Shown here: piece by piece, positions 1 to 9,074 of the stretch
Layout: the number at the start of each line of letters is the position of its first letter
How positions within the stretch are numbered: the first letter of the stretch is position 1
DNA from: Planctomycetota bacterium
GTDB taxonomy: Bacteria > Planctomycetota > PLA2 > JAEUHO01
Length of the DNA: 64,000 nucleotides
Reading direction: 5' to 3'
NCBI GenBank assembly: GCA_965223505.1
Contig: CBDCWP010000038.1
Span: 64,001 to 128,000, forward strand
Made by a program: the position numbers and the translations under genes
Notes under the pieces: model-generated
The model's input: the letters and a program-made list of their open reading frames with translations, nothing else
The model's database searches: none
What the model was told of the DNA's origin: nothing

Positions 1-3000
1 TCGCGATTGACGCCGAAGTGCTCCGCCAACGCCTTGCGATCGATCAGGTCGATCACCGCGTTTGCCGCCTTCACGACCTTCGCGGCCTGCTCCTCGTCCA
101 GCTCACCCTTTCCGAACGCGAGCGCCAACTCTTCGCTGTACACCGGCAGGTGCTTCGGATGCTGCTCGAGGATGCGCGCGGCGAGCTTGCCAAACGCCTC
201 GGTCTCTCCGCTCTTCCGCAGCTTCGCGAGCTGCTCGACCATGAAATCGCGCACCGCTTCGTTCGTCGCTTCGAGCGCGTCCGGCTCCTCGTCGTCCTCC
301 GCCGCGTCGTCCGGATCGTCGTCATCCAGGTCGGCGTGCTTCGGCGGTACCAGGTAGCGCACCGGGAAGCCCTCCGGACGCTTGCCCGGACCCGCCTCGA
401 GAGCATCCGGCGCGCCGTAGCTGATCGTCCCGATCAGCTCGTCGCCGGGCGATGCCGACTTGGGCAGCTTGCCCTTGATCGCGGAGAGGAAGACGGCCGC
501 AGACTCACCTGCCAGAAGCGTACGGTCCTCGAAGTCGGACCGCCCCACGAGCGCGGCCTCGCCGGTCGGGTGGACCCCGAGCGAGATCGCCTTGCCGAGG
601 TGGATGTCAAGGAGCAGCGCCGTCTGCTTCAGCGCCTCGACGCGCTTCGCGCTCTCGTGCCGGAAGTGGAACCGCACCCGATACGTACCCGCGTCCAGCT
701 TGACGTCTTCGTCGCCACCGCCGCCCGCGCGTAGCAGGCGACGATTCGCGTCGAAGAGCATCCAGAGGCTCGACGAGTGCGCGTCCCAGACGCCGTCTTC
801 GGTCGCCAGAGACGTCTTCAGATCGATCGTCGCGTCGTCTTCGAGCTCGAACTCGTACGTCAGCACGCACTGGTGGATCCGGCGCCCCTCGGGCAGCACG
901 TCCCGGTCGTCGTCCAGCGGCTTCGCCTCGAACGCAACCGGTCGATAGCGCTTGCGCAGCTTGGTCAGCTCGGCGCTCGGCTTGACGTCCTCGTTGCGGA
1001 ACGGGGCCGTCACGAGGACGCGTGTCGCGTGCTCCGCCCCGTCGACGCACACAGTGCGGCAGTCGGGCATCAGCCCGTGAAAGCGCACCTCGATCTCGCA
1101 CGTGCTCTCTCCGTGACTGGACCAATACTGCGACAGGCACACCTCGAGCGTGCGCCCACCCTCGACGATGACCCCGTAGCCCTCTTCCTCGTTCGGATCG
1201 AGCCGCGTCCACTCTTCGGTCTTCTGATAGGCCAGGCCCGGCACCAGGTGCGTCGTCTGCAACGCGTAGACGCGCGAGGCCTCGTTGTCGCCCGCGCGCA
1301 GCGTCACGTCGGCCCAGGTCGCTCCGGGCGGCACCGCCAGGAACGTACGCACGAGCTTGCCGGGCGTGAACGCGACGGTCTCGCGCCAACGGTAATCGTC
1401 CTCGGCCGACACCGCCGTCGGACGAATCACGGTCACGGGCACGCGGAACAACGGTCCTCGGTCCGGCGCACGATCGTCGTAGCCGCGCACCTCCCCTTCG
1501 TGAGCGCCCGGCGGGAGCGCGGTCGGATCGACCCTCACGTCGAACGTCTCGCCGCCGTGCGTGAGCAGGAGATGGCGCGGCGCCTCGATCCACACTGCGC
1601 TCGACTCGAGCCGGATCCGGTTCCGATACGCCACGCGACGGCGGTGGTCTTCGTCCTCGTGGAAATGCGGCTTCACGCGCACGCGCGCCTCGAGGACGCG
1701 GGCGGCTTCGAGGGGCTCGCGCACGTAGATGCCGCGCGCGTCCCGGCGCCGCGGGAGCGTCACCTCGTAGCGGACGTCCTCGTCGCTTCGTTCGCCGTTC
1801 TGCTCCAAGTAGGCCCACGCCCGGTCGATCTGGATCAGCCCCGCGCCGACGTCGTACGCGCGCGCGCCCTCGGGACGTCGCGCGGTGTTCTCGAGCGCCC
1901 GCCGCACGCGGTGCGGCGAATACGGCATCTTGTTGGCCTTCATCGCCGACCGCAACAGGGCGATGCCGCCGCACGCGTTGGGCGCCGACATGGACGTTCC
2001 GTTCATGTGCATCTGGCCCTGCAGCGACCAGGTCGGCACCGGCGCGATCGCGCCGCCCGGCGCGCTGAAGTCGACGCCGAAGGCGCCGTCGAGCGTCGGT
2101 CCACGCGACGACCACATGAAGTAGTTGGGCGGGACGTCCTTCCGCAACGCGTACTGCGCCTTCATCATCGACGGCGACAAGTACGCGCCGATGCCGAAGA
2201 TCGCCGACGTGGTCCCGCCGGGCCCGCCGACGGTCGAAAGGCCCGGCCCCTCGTTGCCCGCGCTCGCGACGAAGATCACGCCGTGCTTGTTGACGATCTC
2301 GGTGTAGAGCCGCGCCGTTCGAACGTCGTTCGGATAGGGGCTGGCGCCGCCGTAGCTCATGTTGATCAGGTCGCAGCCGTTCTCGAGCGCGGCGATGAGT
2401 CCACGCACGCTGCCGGTTCCGCTCGAGGACGAGTCGTTGCGCGTGTCGCCGATCTTGACCGAGACGATCTGCGCGCCGGGGGCGATGCCGTTCAGATCCG
2501 GGTCGTCGGGGAAGTGCGCCGCGACGATGCCCGCGACGTGGGTTCCGTGCGCGCCGGTGTCGACGACGATCGAGAGCGTGTCGCCGTCGTCGTAGACGTT
2601 CATGGCGTAGTTGAGCAGCGACTCGTCGCTGAACGTGGCGTACTGCCGCTCTGCGCGGAAGTTCGTGAGCACCGTCTCGTCGGTGAGGTCGCCGTCTTCG
2701 TCCGTGTCGAGCACGGCGCGCCACGTCGCGCCGTCGTGGAAGACGACGCAGTCGAAGACCGGGCCCGGGTCGTCGAACGAGAGCTTCTTCAGCTGTTCGA
2801 GTCGCAACTCGAGGTCTTCCTTCTGCTTCTTCGCCTCGGGCGTCTTGGCCTCGACGGCGTTCGCCGTCTCGAGCACCGCCTCCTGCGCCGCGATCGCAGC
2901 ACGCTGCTTCTCGTCCCACTTCTTGCGCGCCTTCTTCTTCAGCCGCCCGACCAACCGGCCGGGATACAGCTCGTAGGCGCGCTTGATGCCCAGGCGAACC

Positions 3001-3380
3001 TCGCCCTTCGGGCACTTCCAGTCCGGCGGAATCGCGATCGTACGGCCGGTCAGGCCCTCGACCTTTCCGTCCTTCACCTTCCGCACGGTGGACGTGTCGA
3101 CGTCGCCGCTGCCGGACCCGTCCACGACGTCGATGATCTTCGGATTGCCGTCCGAGGTCGTCTGCAGGCCGGCCGCGCCCGGATCGACGCCCGTGTCGAA
3201 GATCGCCACGACGACGCCGCGCCCGTCGTACTCGGGATGGGCCTGCAGGAAGCGGTCCGCCCCCGTTTCGGCCTTGGGCAACAGACCATGGTCCGGGAAT
3301 TCGTCTTCCGACGCAGCCGGCCGCATGCCCGCGGCCGTTAGCAACAACAGGAACAACCCGATCTGACGGGCGCGCACCAT
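1..3380 (-). CDS. Tripeptidyl-peptidase II-like subtilase (S8) with signal peptide; runs off the left edge of the window
   Basis: Not in the ORF track, translated by hand from ATG 3380 (GAGGAG RBS upstream): MVRARQIGLFLLLLTAAG...FPDHGLLPKAETGADRFLQAHPEYDGRGVVVAIFDTGVDPGA (catalytic Asp), GAHGTHVAGI (His), VASAGNEGP (oxyanion Asn), MNGTSMSAPNACGGIAL (Ser). These closely match eukaryotic TPP II signatures as recalled. Confidence 0.93.
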   Translation of the reverse strand, partial: MVRARQIGLFLLLLTAAGMRPAASEDEFPDHGLLPKAETGADRFLQAHPEYDGRGVVVAIFDTGVDPGAAGLQTTSDGNPKIIDVVDGSGSGDVDTSTVRKVKDGKVEGLTGRTIAIPPDWKCPKGEVRLGIKRAYELYPGRLVGRLKKKARKKWDEKQRAAIAAQEAVLETANAVEAKTPEAKKQKEDLELRLEQLKKLSFDDPGPVFDCVVFHDGATWRAVLDTDEDGDLTDETVLTNFRAERQYATFSDESLLNYAMNVYDDGDTLSIVVDTGAHGTHVAGIVAAHFPDDPDLNGIAPGAQIVSVKIGDTRNDSSSSGTGSVRGLIAALENGCDLINMSYGGASPYPNDVRTARLYTEIVNKHGVIFVASAGNEGPGLSTVGGPGGTTSAIFGIGAYLSPSMMKAQYALRKDVPPNYFMWSSRGPTLDGAFGVDFSAPGGAIAPVPTWSLQGQMHMNGTSMSAPNACGGIALLRSAMKANKMPYSPHRVRRALENTARRPEGARAYDVGAGLIQIDRAWAYLEQNGERSDEDVRYEVTLPRRRDARGIYVREPLEAARVLEARVRVKPHFHEDEDHRRRVAYRNRIRLESSAVWIEAPRHLLLTHGGETFDVRVDPTALPPGAHEGEVRGYDDRAPDRGPLFRVPVTVIRPTAVSAEDDYRWRETVAFTPGKLVRTFLAVPPGATWADVTLRAGDNEASRVYALQTTHLVPGLAYQKTEEWTRLDPNEEEGYGVIVEGGRTLEVCLSQYWSSHGESTCEIEVRFHGLMPDCRTVCVDGAEHATRVLVTAPFRNEDVKPSAELTKLRKRYRPVAFEAKPLDDDRDVLPEGRRIHQCVLTYEFELEDDATIDLKTSLATEDGVWDAHSSSLWMLFDANRRLLRAGGGGDEDVKLDAGTYRVRFHFRHESAKRVEALKQTALLLDIHLGKAISLGVHPTGEAALVGRSDFEDRTLLAGESAAVFLSAIKGKLPKSASPGDELIGTISYGAPDALEAGPGKRPEGFPVRYLVPPKHADLDDDDPDDAAEDDEEPDALEATNEAVRDFMVEQLAKLRKSGETEAFGKLAARILEQHPKHLPVYSEELALAFGKGELDEEQAAKVVKAANAVIDLIDRKALAEHFGVNR

Positions 3381-3484: not shown

Positions 3485-4462
3485 ATGACCCGTGCCCTCT
3501 TGCTGGCAGCCGTGTTCGGCCTGTTCGTATTCTCCGCGCCGTACGCGCGCACGACCGATCTCGGTGACGGCAACGACGACGTCGCGAAGATGTTCGAGTC
3601 GTACAAGAAGGGCGGCCCCCGCACCAAGAAGAGCGACGCCAAGCGACGCGTGATGATGACCGGGTTCGGCCTCTTCTCCGGCGTCGACTACAACATCTCG
3701 GGCGTGGTCGTCGAGTCGATGGCGTCGGAGGACTTCTGGCCGACGGAAATCCTGGCGACCGCGATGTACGCGCCGCCGAAGCAGGAAAACGTCGGCAAGG
3801 GTGTGCTGAAGAAGAAGGACGGCGGCGCAAGAGTCTGGCAACGAACGCTGAAGGTCGCCGGCGAAGAGTACGAGGTCGCGTTCCTGTTGCTCGACGTCCT
3901 GTGGGACCTCGGGCCGGCCATCACGCTGTACGAAGCGCAGCACTTCCAGCCGCACCTGATCATCATGACGGGCCGCGGTGGCAAGCGGGCCGTGTTCGAA
4001 GGCGGCGCGGTCAACAACGCGACCAAGCACCCCGGCTTCCGCTACGACGGGAAGGCGGACGGCAAGAACCGCCCGGTGAGGTCCTTCGTGTTGGATCCCG
4101 AGCTCACCGGCATCGAAGCGGCCATCGCGACGACATGGGACAATCAGAAGCTGGCCGACATGGCGCGCGAGCAGATCCAGGCGATCGGCGACGCGAAGTT
4201 CGAGGTCGTCGCGCCCGCGAAGGCGCGGCCGGAGAACAACTACATCTGCAACAACATCACCGCGGCCGTCATGCACGGCCTCAAAGGCGTGGATGTCGAG
4301 CTCGCCGGGGGCAAGATCAAGCTGAAGGACGTCAAGCTGCCCGATACGCGCGGCGGGTTCTTCCACTATCCCGCGGCCGCGACGAACAAGGCGTGGCACG
4401 TCTGGCAGTGGTGCAGCGTGTGGCGGCACGTGATGCAACGGCACTTCGAGAAGCCGGACTAG
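3485..4462 (+). CDS. Secreted pyroglutamyl-peptidase I-like cysteine peptidase (C15)
   Basis: Signal peptide; MMTGFGLF..N.SG, FEGGAVN (Glu), NYICN (Cys), GFFHYP (His); AAGGAG RBS and a TAGAAT -10-like element upstream. Confidence 0.75.
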   Translation: MTRALLLAAVFGLFVFSAPYARTTDLGDGNDDVAKMFESYKKGGPRTKKSDAKRRVMMTGFGLFSGVDYNISGVVVESMASEDFWPTEILATAMYAPPKQENVGKGVLKKKDGGARVWQRTLKVAGEEYEVAFLLLDVLWDLGPAITLYEAQHFQPHLIIMTGRGGKRAVFEGGAVNNATKHPGFRYDGKADGKNRPVRSFVLDPELTGIEAAIATTWDNQKLADMAREQIQAIGDAKFEVVAPAKARPENNYICNNITAAVMHGLKGVDVELAGGKIKLKDVKLPDTRGGFFHYPAAATNKAWHVWQWCSVWRHVMQRHFEKPD

Positions 4463-5103: not shown

Positions 5104-6051
5104 CTACGACCGCCAGGGAAGCCGCGACAGATCCACGTTGCCGCCGCTGAGAATCACGCCGACGCGCTTGCCCCTGACGAGCTCCGTCGCGCGAGCGACC
5201 GCCGCGACGGGCACCGCGCTCGACGGCTCGATGACGATCTTCATGCGCTCCCAGACCGTGCGCATGGCTTCCACGATCTCGGTTTCCGCCACGGCAACGA
5301 TGTCCGACAGGTGTTCGCGCAGGACGGCGAACGTGCGGTCGCTGAGCGACGTGCGCAGGCCGTCCGCGATCGTCTTCGCCGCGCCGACGGGGATCAGCGT
5401 GCCCGCGCGCAGCGACTGCAACGCGTCGTCCGCCTCGGCGGGCTCGGTCCCGTAGATGCCGACATCGGGATCGAGCCCGTGCGCCGCGATGCACGTGCCG
5501 CTCGCCAGTCCCCCACCGCCGACCGGCACGAAGAGCGCGTCGAGGTCCTCGACGTCTTCCATGAGCTCCAACGCCACCGTGCCCTGCCCTGCGATGATGC
5601 GGTCGTCGTCGTACGGGTGGATGAACGTCGCGCCGGTCTCCCGAACGACCTCGGTGGCGGTCGTCTCCCGCGCTGCGAGCGTCGGCTCGCACGGAACGAC
5701 GGTGGCGCCGTAGTCTTCGACCGCCGCGCGCTTGATCGCCGGCGCGTCGGTCGGCATGACGACGAACGCTCGGATCCCGCGCTGTTTCGCCGCCAGCGCG
5801 AGTGCCTGGGCATGATTGCCCGACGAGTGGGTCACGACGCCGCGTTCGGCCTCGGCGTCGGCGAGCATGCGCACGGCGTTGGTCGCGCCGCGGAACTTGA
5901 AGGCGCCGACCTTCTGGAAGTTCTCGCACTTGAAGTACAGCGAGCAGCCGTAGCGCTCGTCGAGATGGGCGTTCGTCAAGACCGGCGTTTGATGGGCCCG
6001 CCCCGCGATGCGGCGCGTGGCGTCCCGGACGTCGTCGAGCGTCACTCCCAT
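5104..6051 (-). CDS. PLP-dependent threonine/serine dehydratase or serine racemase family protein
   Basis: KCENFQKVGAFKFRG (PLP Lys), SSGNH, VGGGGL, EPSSA, SGGNVD; no regulatory domain; start overlaps the end of guaA. Confidence 0.9.
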   Translation of the reverse strand: MGVTLDDVRDATRRIAGRAHQTPVLTNAHLDERYGCSLYFKCENFQKVGAFKFRGATNAVRMLADAEAERGVVTHSSGNHAQALALAAKQRGIRAFVVMPTDAPAIKRAAVEDYGATVVPCEPTLAARETTATEVVRETGATFIHPYDDDRIIAGQGTVALELMEDVEDLDALFVPVGGGGLASGTCIAAHGLDPDVGIYGTEPAEADDALQSLRAGTLIPVGAAKTIADGLRTSLSDRTFAVLREHLSDIVAVAETEIVEAMRTVWERMKIVIEPSSAVPVAAVARATELVRGKRVGVILSGGNVDLSRLPWRS

Positions 6052-7592
6052 TCGATGGTGGACGGGGGCTTCGTGCTGATGTCGTAGACGACGCGGTTGA
6101 CACCCCGCACCTCGTTGATGATCCGGTTGCTGATCCGTCCGAGCACCTCGCGCGGCAGATCCGCCCAGTCGGCGGTCATTGCGTCGGTGCTTTCGACCGC
6201 GCGCACGGCGACGACGTTCTCGTACGTGCGCTCGTCGCCCATGACGCCGACCGTCTTCACGGGGACGAGCACGGCGAAGTACTGCCAGAGCTTCTCGTGT
6301 TCGCCGTCGCGCTCGATCTCCTGGCGCACGATCGCGTCGGCCTCGCGCAGCACGTGGAGACGCTCCGGGTCCACCGCGCCCGCGATCCGCACCGCCAACC
6401 CCGGCCCCGGGAACGGCTGCCGCTCGACGAAGCCGGCCGAGACGCCGAGCTCCCGGCCGATCGCGCGCACCTCGTCCTTGAAGAGGTCGCGAAACGGCTC
6501 GAGCAGCTCGAAGCCGAGCTCCTCAGGCAGCCCGCCGACGTTGTGGTGCGTCTTGATCGTCACGGACGCGCCGCCGAACGCCGACTGGCTCTCGATGACG
6601 TCCGGGTAGAGCGTGCCCTGCGCGAGCCACTTCACGTTCTCGACGCGCTCCGCCTCCGCCTTGAAGACGTCGACGAAGATGTGACCGATGCGCTTGCGCT
6701 TCTCCTCGGGATCCGTGACGTCCTTCAACGCGGCGACGAAGGTCTCGCCGGCGTCGGCAAACCGAACAGGCACATGGAAGTCGTTCTCGAACGCGTGGAG
6801 CACTGCCCGCGCCTCGTCCTTTCGAAGGAACCCGTTGTCCACGAAGATGCAGGTGAGGCGGTCGCCGATCGCCTTGTGGATGAGGACGGCGGCAACCGTC
6901 GAGTCCACGCCGCCACTGATGCCGCACAGGACCTTCTCGTCCTCGCCGACCTGCGCGCGGATCTTCGCGACGCACTCCTCGACGAACGAGGCCATCTGCC
7001 AGTCGCCGGATGCGCCGCAGACGTCGTAGAGGAAGTTGCGCAGCAGGTCGGTTCCCCGCGGCGTGTGGGTCACCTCGGGGTGGAACTGCACGCCGTAGAT
7101 CGGCTTGGCGGTGTGCCGCACGGCCGCGTACGGCGCGCTGGACGTTCGCGCGAGCGCTACGAACCCCTCCGGCACGCTCTCGACACGGTCGCCGTGGCTC
7201 ATCCACACGTCCATCTCATCGCCCAAGTCGTGGAAGAGCGCGTCGTCCTGCCCTGTGATCTCGATGCGCGCCGGACCGTACTCGCGCTCGACCGCGTGGT
7301 CGACCTCGCCGCCCAGCAGGTGGGTCGTGAGCTGCATGCCGTAGCAGATGCCGAGGATCGGGACGCCCTGGTCGTAAACGGCGACGTCCACGGTCGGCGC
7401 GTTGTCGGCGTACGCGCTCCAGGGACTGCCGGAGAAGAGGACGCCTTTGGCCTCGCCGATGCGCTCGGCGAGCTGCTGCGGCATGACGATCTCGGCGAAA
7501 CAGCCGAGCTCGCGCACGCGGCGCGCGATCAGCTGCGCGTACTGGCTGCCGAAGTCGACGACGAAGAAGCGCTGGTGTTCGACGTTCGTGCT
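6042..7592 (-). CDS. guaA: GMP synthase (glutamine-hydrolysing); start codon unresolved
   Basis: VVDFGSQYAQLIARRVRE, GICYGMQ, QFHPEV, SGGVDS, QGTLYPDVIES, KTHHNVGGLP, KPPSTIEWE. The conserved N-terminus lies upstream of the first in-frame GTG (7517). Confidence 0.95.
   Translation of the reverse strand, partial: STNVEHQRFFVVDFGSQYAQLIARRVRELGCFAEIVMPQQLAERIGEAKGVLFSGSPWSAYADNAPTVDVAVYDQGVPILGICYGMQLTTHLLGGEVDHAVEREYGPARIEITGQDDALFHDLGDEMDVWMSHGDRVESVPEGFVALARTSSAPYAAVRHTAKPIYGVQFHPEVTHTPRGTDLLRNFLYDVCGASGDWQMASFVEECVAKIRAQVGEDEKVLCGISGGVDSTVAAVLIHKAIGDRLTCIFVDNGFLRKDEARAVLHAFENDFHVPVRFADAGETFVAALKDVTDPEEKRKRIGHIFVDVFKAEAERVENVKWLAQGTLYPDVIESQSAFGGASVTIKTHHNVGGLPEELGFELLEPFRDLFKDEVRAIGRELGVSAGFVERQPFPGPGLAVRIAGAVDPERLHVLREADAIVRQEIERDGEHEKLWQYFAVLVPVKTVGVMGDERTYENVVAVRAVESTDAMTADWADLPREVLGRISNRIINEVRGVNRVVYDISTKPPSTIEWE

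Positions 7593-9074
<1,482 letters not shown>

Follow-up and report, generated by a model that had tools for sequence, protein, structure and literature searches.

Subtilases have a textbook exception in tripeptidyl-peptidase II (TPP II), an exopeptidase. Two glutamates (the double Glu) at the mouth of its S4 site bind the free amino group of the substrate and halt the chain at three residues, and the work of Lindas in 2008, Chuang in 2010 and Peters in 2011 is said to have described how this pair, in binding the amino group, blocks the cleft at P4. The stretch of Planctomycetota DNA analysed here (64,000 nucleotides; hereafter the window) encodes a TPP II homologue in which, according to an initial annotation, both glutamates are lacking. 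This raises the question of whether such a protein can still be a tripeptidyl peptidase, or whether the TPP II scaffold has here taken on another specificity.

The peptidase gene and its missing glutamates

The gene lies on the minus strand with an ORF start at window position 3380 and runs past the left edge of the window. In the genome it occupies G000:C38:63610-67380, with a product of 1256 aa (hereafter the window protein), and it is present in single copy, being the sole tblastn match in its genome. Named close matches of the peptidase come from Planctomycetota and Verrucomicrobiota. The Pfam domains above the cut-off were S8 (PF00082, residues 53-514), TPP II Ig-like and galactose-binding-like domains (PF21223 and PF21316) and PF12580, with PF12583 (TPPII_C) falling just under threshold (score 25.5, cut-off 27.7). 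The nearest solved relative is Drosophila TPP II (PDB accession no. 3LXU; phmmer, E 8e-173), and Foldseek analysis with an AlphaFold model of residues 1-1126 (pLDDT 92.8) returned the same structure as its top match (TM 0.73, E 1.5e-82). Pfam and the model together show the architecture and fold of TPP II, with its insert, Ig-like domain, galactose-binding domain, PF12580 and C-terminal helices. The features of the gene are as follows (window coordinates).

1..3380, minus strand: TPP II-like S8 peptidase gene, residues 1-1126 of 1256 (Pfam; best fold match 3LXU; runs past the left edge)
3312..3380, minus strand: signal-peptide-like N-terminus, approximately residues 1-23 (sequence; helix 2-18 in the model; no propeptide after it)
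3195..3197, minus strand: catalytic Asp62 (phmmer against 3LXU and alignment)
2547..2549, minus strand: catalytic His278 (phmmer against 3LXU and alignment)
2433..2435, minus strand: Asp316, at the position of subtilisin Asp99 (alignment; not a subfamily-specific substitute)
2424..2426, minus strand: Ser319 (codon TCG), equivalent to Drosophila Glu312 and subtilisin Gly102 (phmmer, profile search)
2409..2411, minus strand: Ser324, equivalent to subtilisin Ile107 (S4 pocket) and Drosophila Leu317 (alignment)
2346..2348, minus strand: Gly345 (codon GGC), equivalent to Drosophila Glu343 and subtilisin Gly128 (phmmer, profile search)
2253..2255, minus strand: oxyanion-hole Asn376 (phmmer against 3LXU and alignment)
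1992..1994, minus strand: catalytic Ser463 (phmmer against 3LXU and alignment)
720..815, minus strand: second co-varying patch, residues 856-887, central domain (the Leu-Tyr-Asp/Glu motif and Asp of double-Glu enzymes are absent)

With Drosophila 3LXU as the reference for both glutamates (residue numbers counted from the printed alignment), phmmer aligned the two motifs without gaps and placed Ser319 opposite Glu312 and Gly345 opposite Glu343. A profile search placed both residues in the same register. The two motifs fall within 2340-2460 of the minus strand (Lys309 at 2456-2454). The absence of both glutamates that had been claimed from the sequence was thus confirmed, as was the accompanying claim that the catalytic Asp, His, Ser and Asn are intact (Asp62, His278, Ser463 and Asn376). 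As the defining double Glu is missing, the window protein should not be filed as tripeptidyl-peptidase II, although it is of TPP II lineage. A search of full-text literature for the residue numbers of the two glutamates gave no matching paper.

Sequence error was considered as a source of these substitutions and rejected. The codon TCG is at least two changes away from any Glu codon, Ser/Ala319 with Gly345 recurs in 118 homologues, and contigs of runs X1, X2 and X3, which derive from one sample that is possibly the window's own source and so are not independent support, span codons 319 and 345 with no variant letters.

The Glu-less subfamily and its history

Alignment with Drosophila and bacterial TPP II, proposed in the initial annotation as a check, shows that the Glu pair absent here is kept in Drosophila and in 219 of 347 aligned proteins (the query and homology-search matches, ranked by likeness to two queries and not a census). 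Residue 319 is Ser or Ala in 126 of the 347 (hereafter Glu-less proteins), 118 of which have Gly345 and eight Glu345; two proteins show other combinations. Chance was rejected as an explanation, since 146 new representatives of 50% clusters (from the best 150 of 1191 at 1e-30) split into 127 Glu/Glu, 17 Ser/Gly and two other, and intermediates are rare (the eight with Glu345 among the 347). Because kin share states, these counts are to be read as the signature of a subfamily and not as many independent events; on the sequences compared, Glu loss is a trait of a large bacterial subfamily rather than a one-off. Its named members are Blastopirellula marina (P0401, P0402), B. sediminis, four Bremerella proteins, Phycisphaerae and Verrucomicrobiota, and the proteins of B. 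marina, Bremerella and Verrucomicrobiota are still called tripeptidyl-peptidase II in databases. Eight proteins (P0010, P0011, P0016, P0023, P0025, P0041, P0042 and P0048) combine Ser319, Glu324 and Glu345 and are nested in the Glu-less group; a regained or alternative double-Glu arrangement is possible for these.

Among the Glu-less proteins His278, Asn376 and Ser463 are kept in 126/126 and Asp62 in 125/126 (one gap), and the S1-forming segments are as well conserved as in double-Glu enzymes. Conservation of the S8 core is 0.74 in Glu-less and 0.68 in double-Glu proteins, the two samples differing in breadth. The six most discriminating of 1227 columns are 319, 324, 863, 318, 887 and 345, of which 863 and 887 lie in the second patch. 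Here a Leu-Tyr/Phe-Asp/Glu motif occurs in 191/213 double-Glu versus 5/126 Glu-less proteins, and column 887 holds Asp in 203/213 versus 2/126 (six truncated double-Glu rows are omitted from these counts, and the motif was defined from this alignment, not from literature); the window protein has neither. The motif is conserved from bacteria to Drosophila, the 3LXU counterparts of the patch being Leu875-Tyr876-Glu877 and Asp899 (numbers counted from the phmmer alignment). In the Glu-less subfamily the patch is replaced by an acid-rich loop of variable length, with acids in 60% of members at 863 and 69% at 866 (Asp866 in the window protein). No account of a role for this patch was found in the full-text literature covered.

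Across the phylum, 24 of 401 genomes had a match at 1e-80, one each (at most three candidates were scored per genome). In the loci taken from the phylum genomes, families f1 and f80 have Glu-less forms, nine of ten f5 genomes the double-Glu form (one was not extracted), and families f74 and f39 a third, more distant homologue type. Within the window's own family, 11 of 28 other genomes gave a match, comprising seven Glu-less orthologues and four of the distant type, and the comparison of related loci contained two close loci among seven. The same exonuclease gene is found close to the peptidase gene in all four family genomes compared, and PALP and IMP-dehydrogenase-like genes in three of the four (the latter label was read from the translation); as these neighbours are kept, the peptidase gene is inherited in place. 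The distant group (L048:5475-9161 and L049:5483-8719, both minus strand, also L010-L013 and L033-L038; 36-44% over the catalytic domain) possesses by Pfam the S8 and TPP II Ig-like domains only, and has Thr319/Gly345 with a hydrophobic residue 324, so combining the absence of both glutamates with an S4 site of subtilisin type. The family f1 genomes in which this group occurred lacked the closer form.

Divergent from the peptidase gene, across a gap of 104 bp, lies a 325-aa ORF with a signal-like start (window 3485-4462, plus strand). It had no Pfam or PDB match; its motifs resemble those of pyroglutamyl-peptidase I (C15), and its Atlas features stand at 0.87-0.89 to PF01470 clusters, which is a lead only. 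A functional link between this ORF and the peptidase was rejected: of 23 genomes searched, one gave a match to the ORF, and the 11 family genomes with a TPP II-like match gave none. Window 5104-9074 (minus strand) holds ordinary housekeeping neighbours, namely a PALP enzyme followed by GMP synthase-like and IMP dehydrogenase-like genes (the last two identified by reading translations). Outside the window, at G000:C38:59626-62827 (locus L001), two paralogous ORFs stand in tandem, each about 500 aa long and with a signal-like start and a repeat-like helical C-terminus; the pair is apparently single copy in the family relatives compared.

A quick mixture-model tree of 66 chosen rows, with the diagnostic columns removed, had a branch (SH-aLRT 96) with 30 of the 31 Glu-less rows together on the same side, and a separate one (99) for 14 eukaryote-type rows. 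A single origin of Glu loss was nevertheless not upheld, as a second tree (49 rows, second patch removed, rooted on five distant rows) needed two changes; its backbone was open and its root lay among double-Glu bacteria (87). Judged from these trees, Glu loss is probably derived, with one or two origins. FastTree analysis of 367 rows nested the double-Glu clade without signal-like starts (eukaryote-type) among Glu-less proteins, although on a weakly supported backbone (0.4-0.9). This nesting was absent from the mixture-model trees, and a direct descent of eukaryotic TPP II from Glu-less bacteria is not claimed. In PMC6713707, TPP II (SBT6) is reported in two bacteria only, B. marina and Rubinisphaera brasiliensis (citing Rockel 2012), and its transfer from eukaryotes to bacteria is proposed. 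Bacterial TPP II homologues are far more numerous than the two species named in that text, which reopens the direction of the transfer.

The S4 pocket and the predicted mode of action

Residues 319, 321, 324 and 345 correspond to Gly102, Tyr104, Ile107 and Gly128 of subtilisin BPN' (an alignment with Vpr agrees for 319, 324 and 345), and the positions of Gly102 and Gly128 flank the S4 pocket. PMC5118797 places this pocket between strands 101-104 and 126-128, with Leu96, Tyr104, Ile107 and Leu126 as its lining. By alignment, the window protein has small residues at both 102 and 128, as in an unblocked non-prime cleft, and Gly321, Ser324 and Tyr343 stand in place of the hydrophobic S4 lining of S8A enzymes (Tyr104, Ile107, Leu126). 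Residue 324 is hydrophobic (Leu, Ile, Met, Val or Phe) in 219/219 double-Glu proteins. Among the 126 Glu-less proteins it is Glu in 84, Pro in 10, Gln in 10, Ser in 8, Asp in 6, Thr in 4, Gly in 2, and Val and Phe in one each; all seven family orthologues have Glu324 and the window protein has Ser324. As 36 of the 126, the window protein among them, possess no acid at 319, 324 or 345, an acid is not obligatory at these positions.

The Asp of the RNDS motif (Asp316) had been named at the outset as a residue that, if placed at the amino-binding site, would speak against a changed specificity. Position 316 is Gly in 103/126 Glu-less proteins and Asp in just 12/126, yet Asp in 57/219 double-Glu proteins; Asp316 is not subfamily-specific and was therefore rejected as a substitute amino anchor. 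The proposal of an altered specificity on a TPP II scaffold gains indirect support, in that the S4 residue 324 and the second patch co-vary with Glu loss while the catalytic residues are invariant. Its variant of an enzyme for N-blocked peptides fared less well, since nothing favours a dedicated one beyond what any endopeptidase does. Not foreseen in the initial annotation were the spread of the trait through a subfamily, the export-like start, and Glu324 in most relatives as a possible anchor that is missing here.

Likeness to 3LXU begins at residue 26 and the S8 domain at residue 53, leaving no propeptide of the S8A type. The start of the peptidase was judged signal-like by eye and by a crude hydrophobicity rule; this rule assigns such N-termini to 117 of the 122 Glu-less proteins whose start is intact and also to 123 of 219 double-Glu proteins. 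Eight double-Glu proteins without a signal-like start were looked up, five of which are eukaryotic by source. The N-terminus suggests that the peptidase is probably exported, either periplasmic or secreted. Double-Glu bacterial homologues with signal-like N-termini were also seen (P0117, P0190 and about 120 others), and these are probably exported true tripeptidyl peptidases. A lipobox-like N-terminal pattern, loose and applied with no control, is present in 16/126 Glu-less proteins (for example P0005, P0058, P0082, P0108, P0113, P0120, P0206, P0208, P0209, P0211 and P0215), some of which may be lipoproteins.

We consider it probable that the window protein is exported and acts as an endo- or oligopeptidase whose S4 site is polar and open again and which has no need of a free N-terminus; as far as sequence can tell, its mode of action is most likely that of a subtilisin-type endopeptidase with the body of TPP II. 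With Ser and Gly in place of the Glu pair, S4 would be open as in subtilisin and the substrate would continue beyond P3. The enzyme would then cleave within oligopeptides or unfolded proteins, a free N-terminus being unnecessary. As the TPP II S1 site is retained, a hydrophobic P1 would probably be preferred. Lined by small residues and polar (Gly321, Ser324), the S4 site would confer a loose P4 preference on the window protein, and relatives with Glu324 would lean towards a basic P4. The likely role would be extracytoplasmic peptide breakdown, in nutrition or turnover. Against this reading, the giant assembly of TPP II (a complex over 5 MDa), if kept, could still restrict substrates to short peptides. 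PMC9549277 describes S8 members as endopeptidases except for TPP II and TPP-S, and PMC2933905 describes weak endopeptidase activity of TPP II itself. TPP-S of Streptomyces, which the former source places in S8 outside the TPP II group as a tripeptidyl peptidase, counts against certainty of the endopeptidase reading.

Another carboxylate could bind the amino group, as the family orthologues have Glu324 and the replacement loop is acid-rich. The enzymes would then be N-terminal exopeptidases with a shifted ruler, Glu324 or the acidic loop holding the amino group and tetrapeptides or longer products being released, and the window protein would be loop-dependent or relaxed. Glu or Asp at 324 in 90/126 Glu-less and 0/219 double-Glu proteins, Glu324 together with Glu345 in eight members, and the acids gained at 863 and 866 are consistent with such a ruler. 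Residue 324 is, however, Pro, Gln, Ser, Thr, Gly, Val or Phe in 36/126, unlike the invariant double-Glu anchors, the window protein itself has Ser324, and an acid at subtilisin position 107 is equally readable as a binder of basic P4 residues, as in furin. We regard a shifted ruler as rather unlikely.

It is quite improbable that the window protein is an ordinary tripeptidyl peptidase in which Asp316, or contacts with backbone and water, would hold the amino group. Its TPP II architecture and fold are complete, Asp316 lies on the same loop and relatives are named tripeptidyl-peptidase II in databases, but such names track overall similarity, the distribution of Asp316 given above argues against it, and a concerted change at three sites would be unexpected under unchanged function. 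Eriksson is said to have found in 2009 that the homologue in B. marina has apparently not conserved TPP II function. The proteins of this species are Glu-less, and its lack of the glutamates may have been published already, in which case part of the loss would be known. That report would also suit a weakly active or inactive scaffold, from which the glutamates were lost once catalysis ceased to matter. Such decay is very improbable in view of the invariant catalytic residues in 126 proteins, an S8 core at least as conserved as in double-Glu enzymes (with the difference in sample breadth already mentioned) and the chromosomal place of the gene, kept in four of four family genomes compared.

Relation to known peptidases and implications

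TPP II (MEROPS S08.090; 3LXU) and the window protein share the catalytic residues, the large insert between Asp and His, the lack of a propeptide, and the Ig-like, galactose-binding-like, PF12580 and helical C-terminal domains. They differ in that Glu312, Glu343 and Leu317 (S4) of 3LXU are replaced by Ser, Gly and Ser, and in that the Leu-Tyr-Glu motif and Asp899 are both missing from the window protein; eukaryotic TPP II is cytosolic, whereas the window protein has a signal-like N-terminus. Bacterial double-Glu homologues (such as P0117, and P0190 of Thalassoroseus pseudoceratinae) resemble it in length, domains and signal-like N-termini at about 45% identity, but retain the Glu pair, a hydrophobic residue 324 and the Leu-Tyr-Asp/Glu and Asp patch. 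The B. marina homologue (P0401, P0402) has the same domains, Ser319/Gly345, a signal-like start and no second patch; it differs in having Glu324 instead of Ser324 and falls in a different tree subgroup.

Endopeptidases of the subtilisin type (S8A) carry an N-terminal propeptide. Subtilisins BPN' and Carlsberg and Vpr share with the window protein a small residue at 102 and Gly128, and a subtilisin-like Pro at 129 is found in 77 of 120 nearest matches, but the window protein has no propeptide, about 700 extra residues of TPP II type and a polar instead of a hydrophobic S4 lining. Furin-type convertases (S8B), compared here together with the engineered furilisin, have acidic S4 and S1 sites. The acid at the Ile107 position in most Glu-less relatives is reminiscent of the acidic S4 site of furin; the window protein, by contrast, has Ser324, and its S1 segments, which resemble those of TPP II, are not acidic. 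In the full-text literature covered, outside which key subscription papers fall, neither a subfamily lacking the glutamates nor position 107 nor the second patch was found described.

A bolder and unlikely interpretation is that the Glu-less branch constitutes a new giant S8 specificity class with its ruler one site deeper (Glu at subtilisin 107). In Planctomycetota and Verrucomicrobiota its members would act as tetrapeptidyl peptidases, the first among subtilases, or as processing enzymes for a basic P4, the window protein being ruler-free. The lost patch would be a hitherto unrecognised component of the exopeptidase wall or of the assembly switch, and eukaryotic TPP II would derive from an exported enzyme of these bacteria, contrary to PMC6713707.

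The window protein is best regarded as a specificity variant in a known family, partly foreshadowed, and not as a new kind of system; it is testable in cultured species. More than 100 sequences, including proteins of cultured Blastopirellula and Bremerella, are probably misnamed. A second conserved patch has been shown to travel with the ruler, and a natural ruler-less branch on the TPP II scaffold would permit a direct test of exo-/endopeptidase interconversion and of the purpose of the extra domains.
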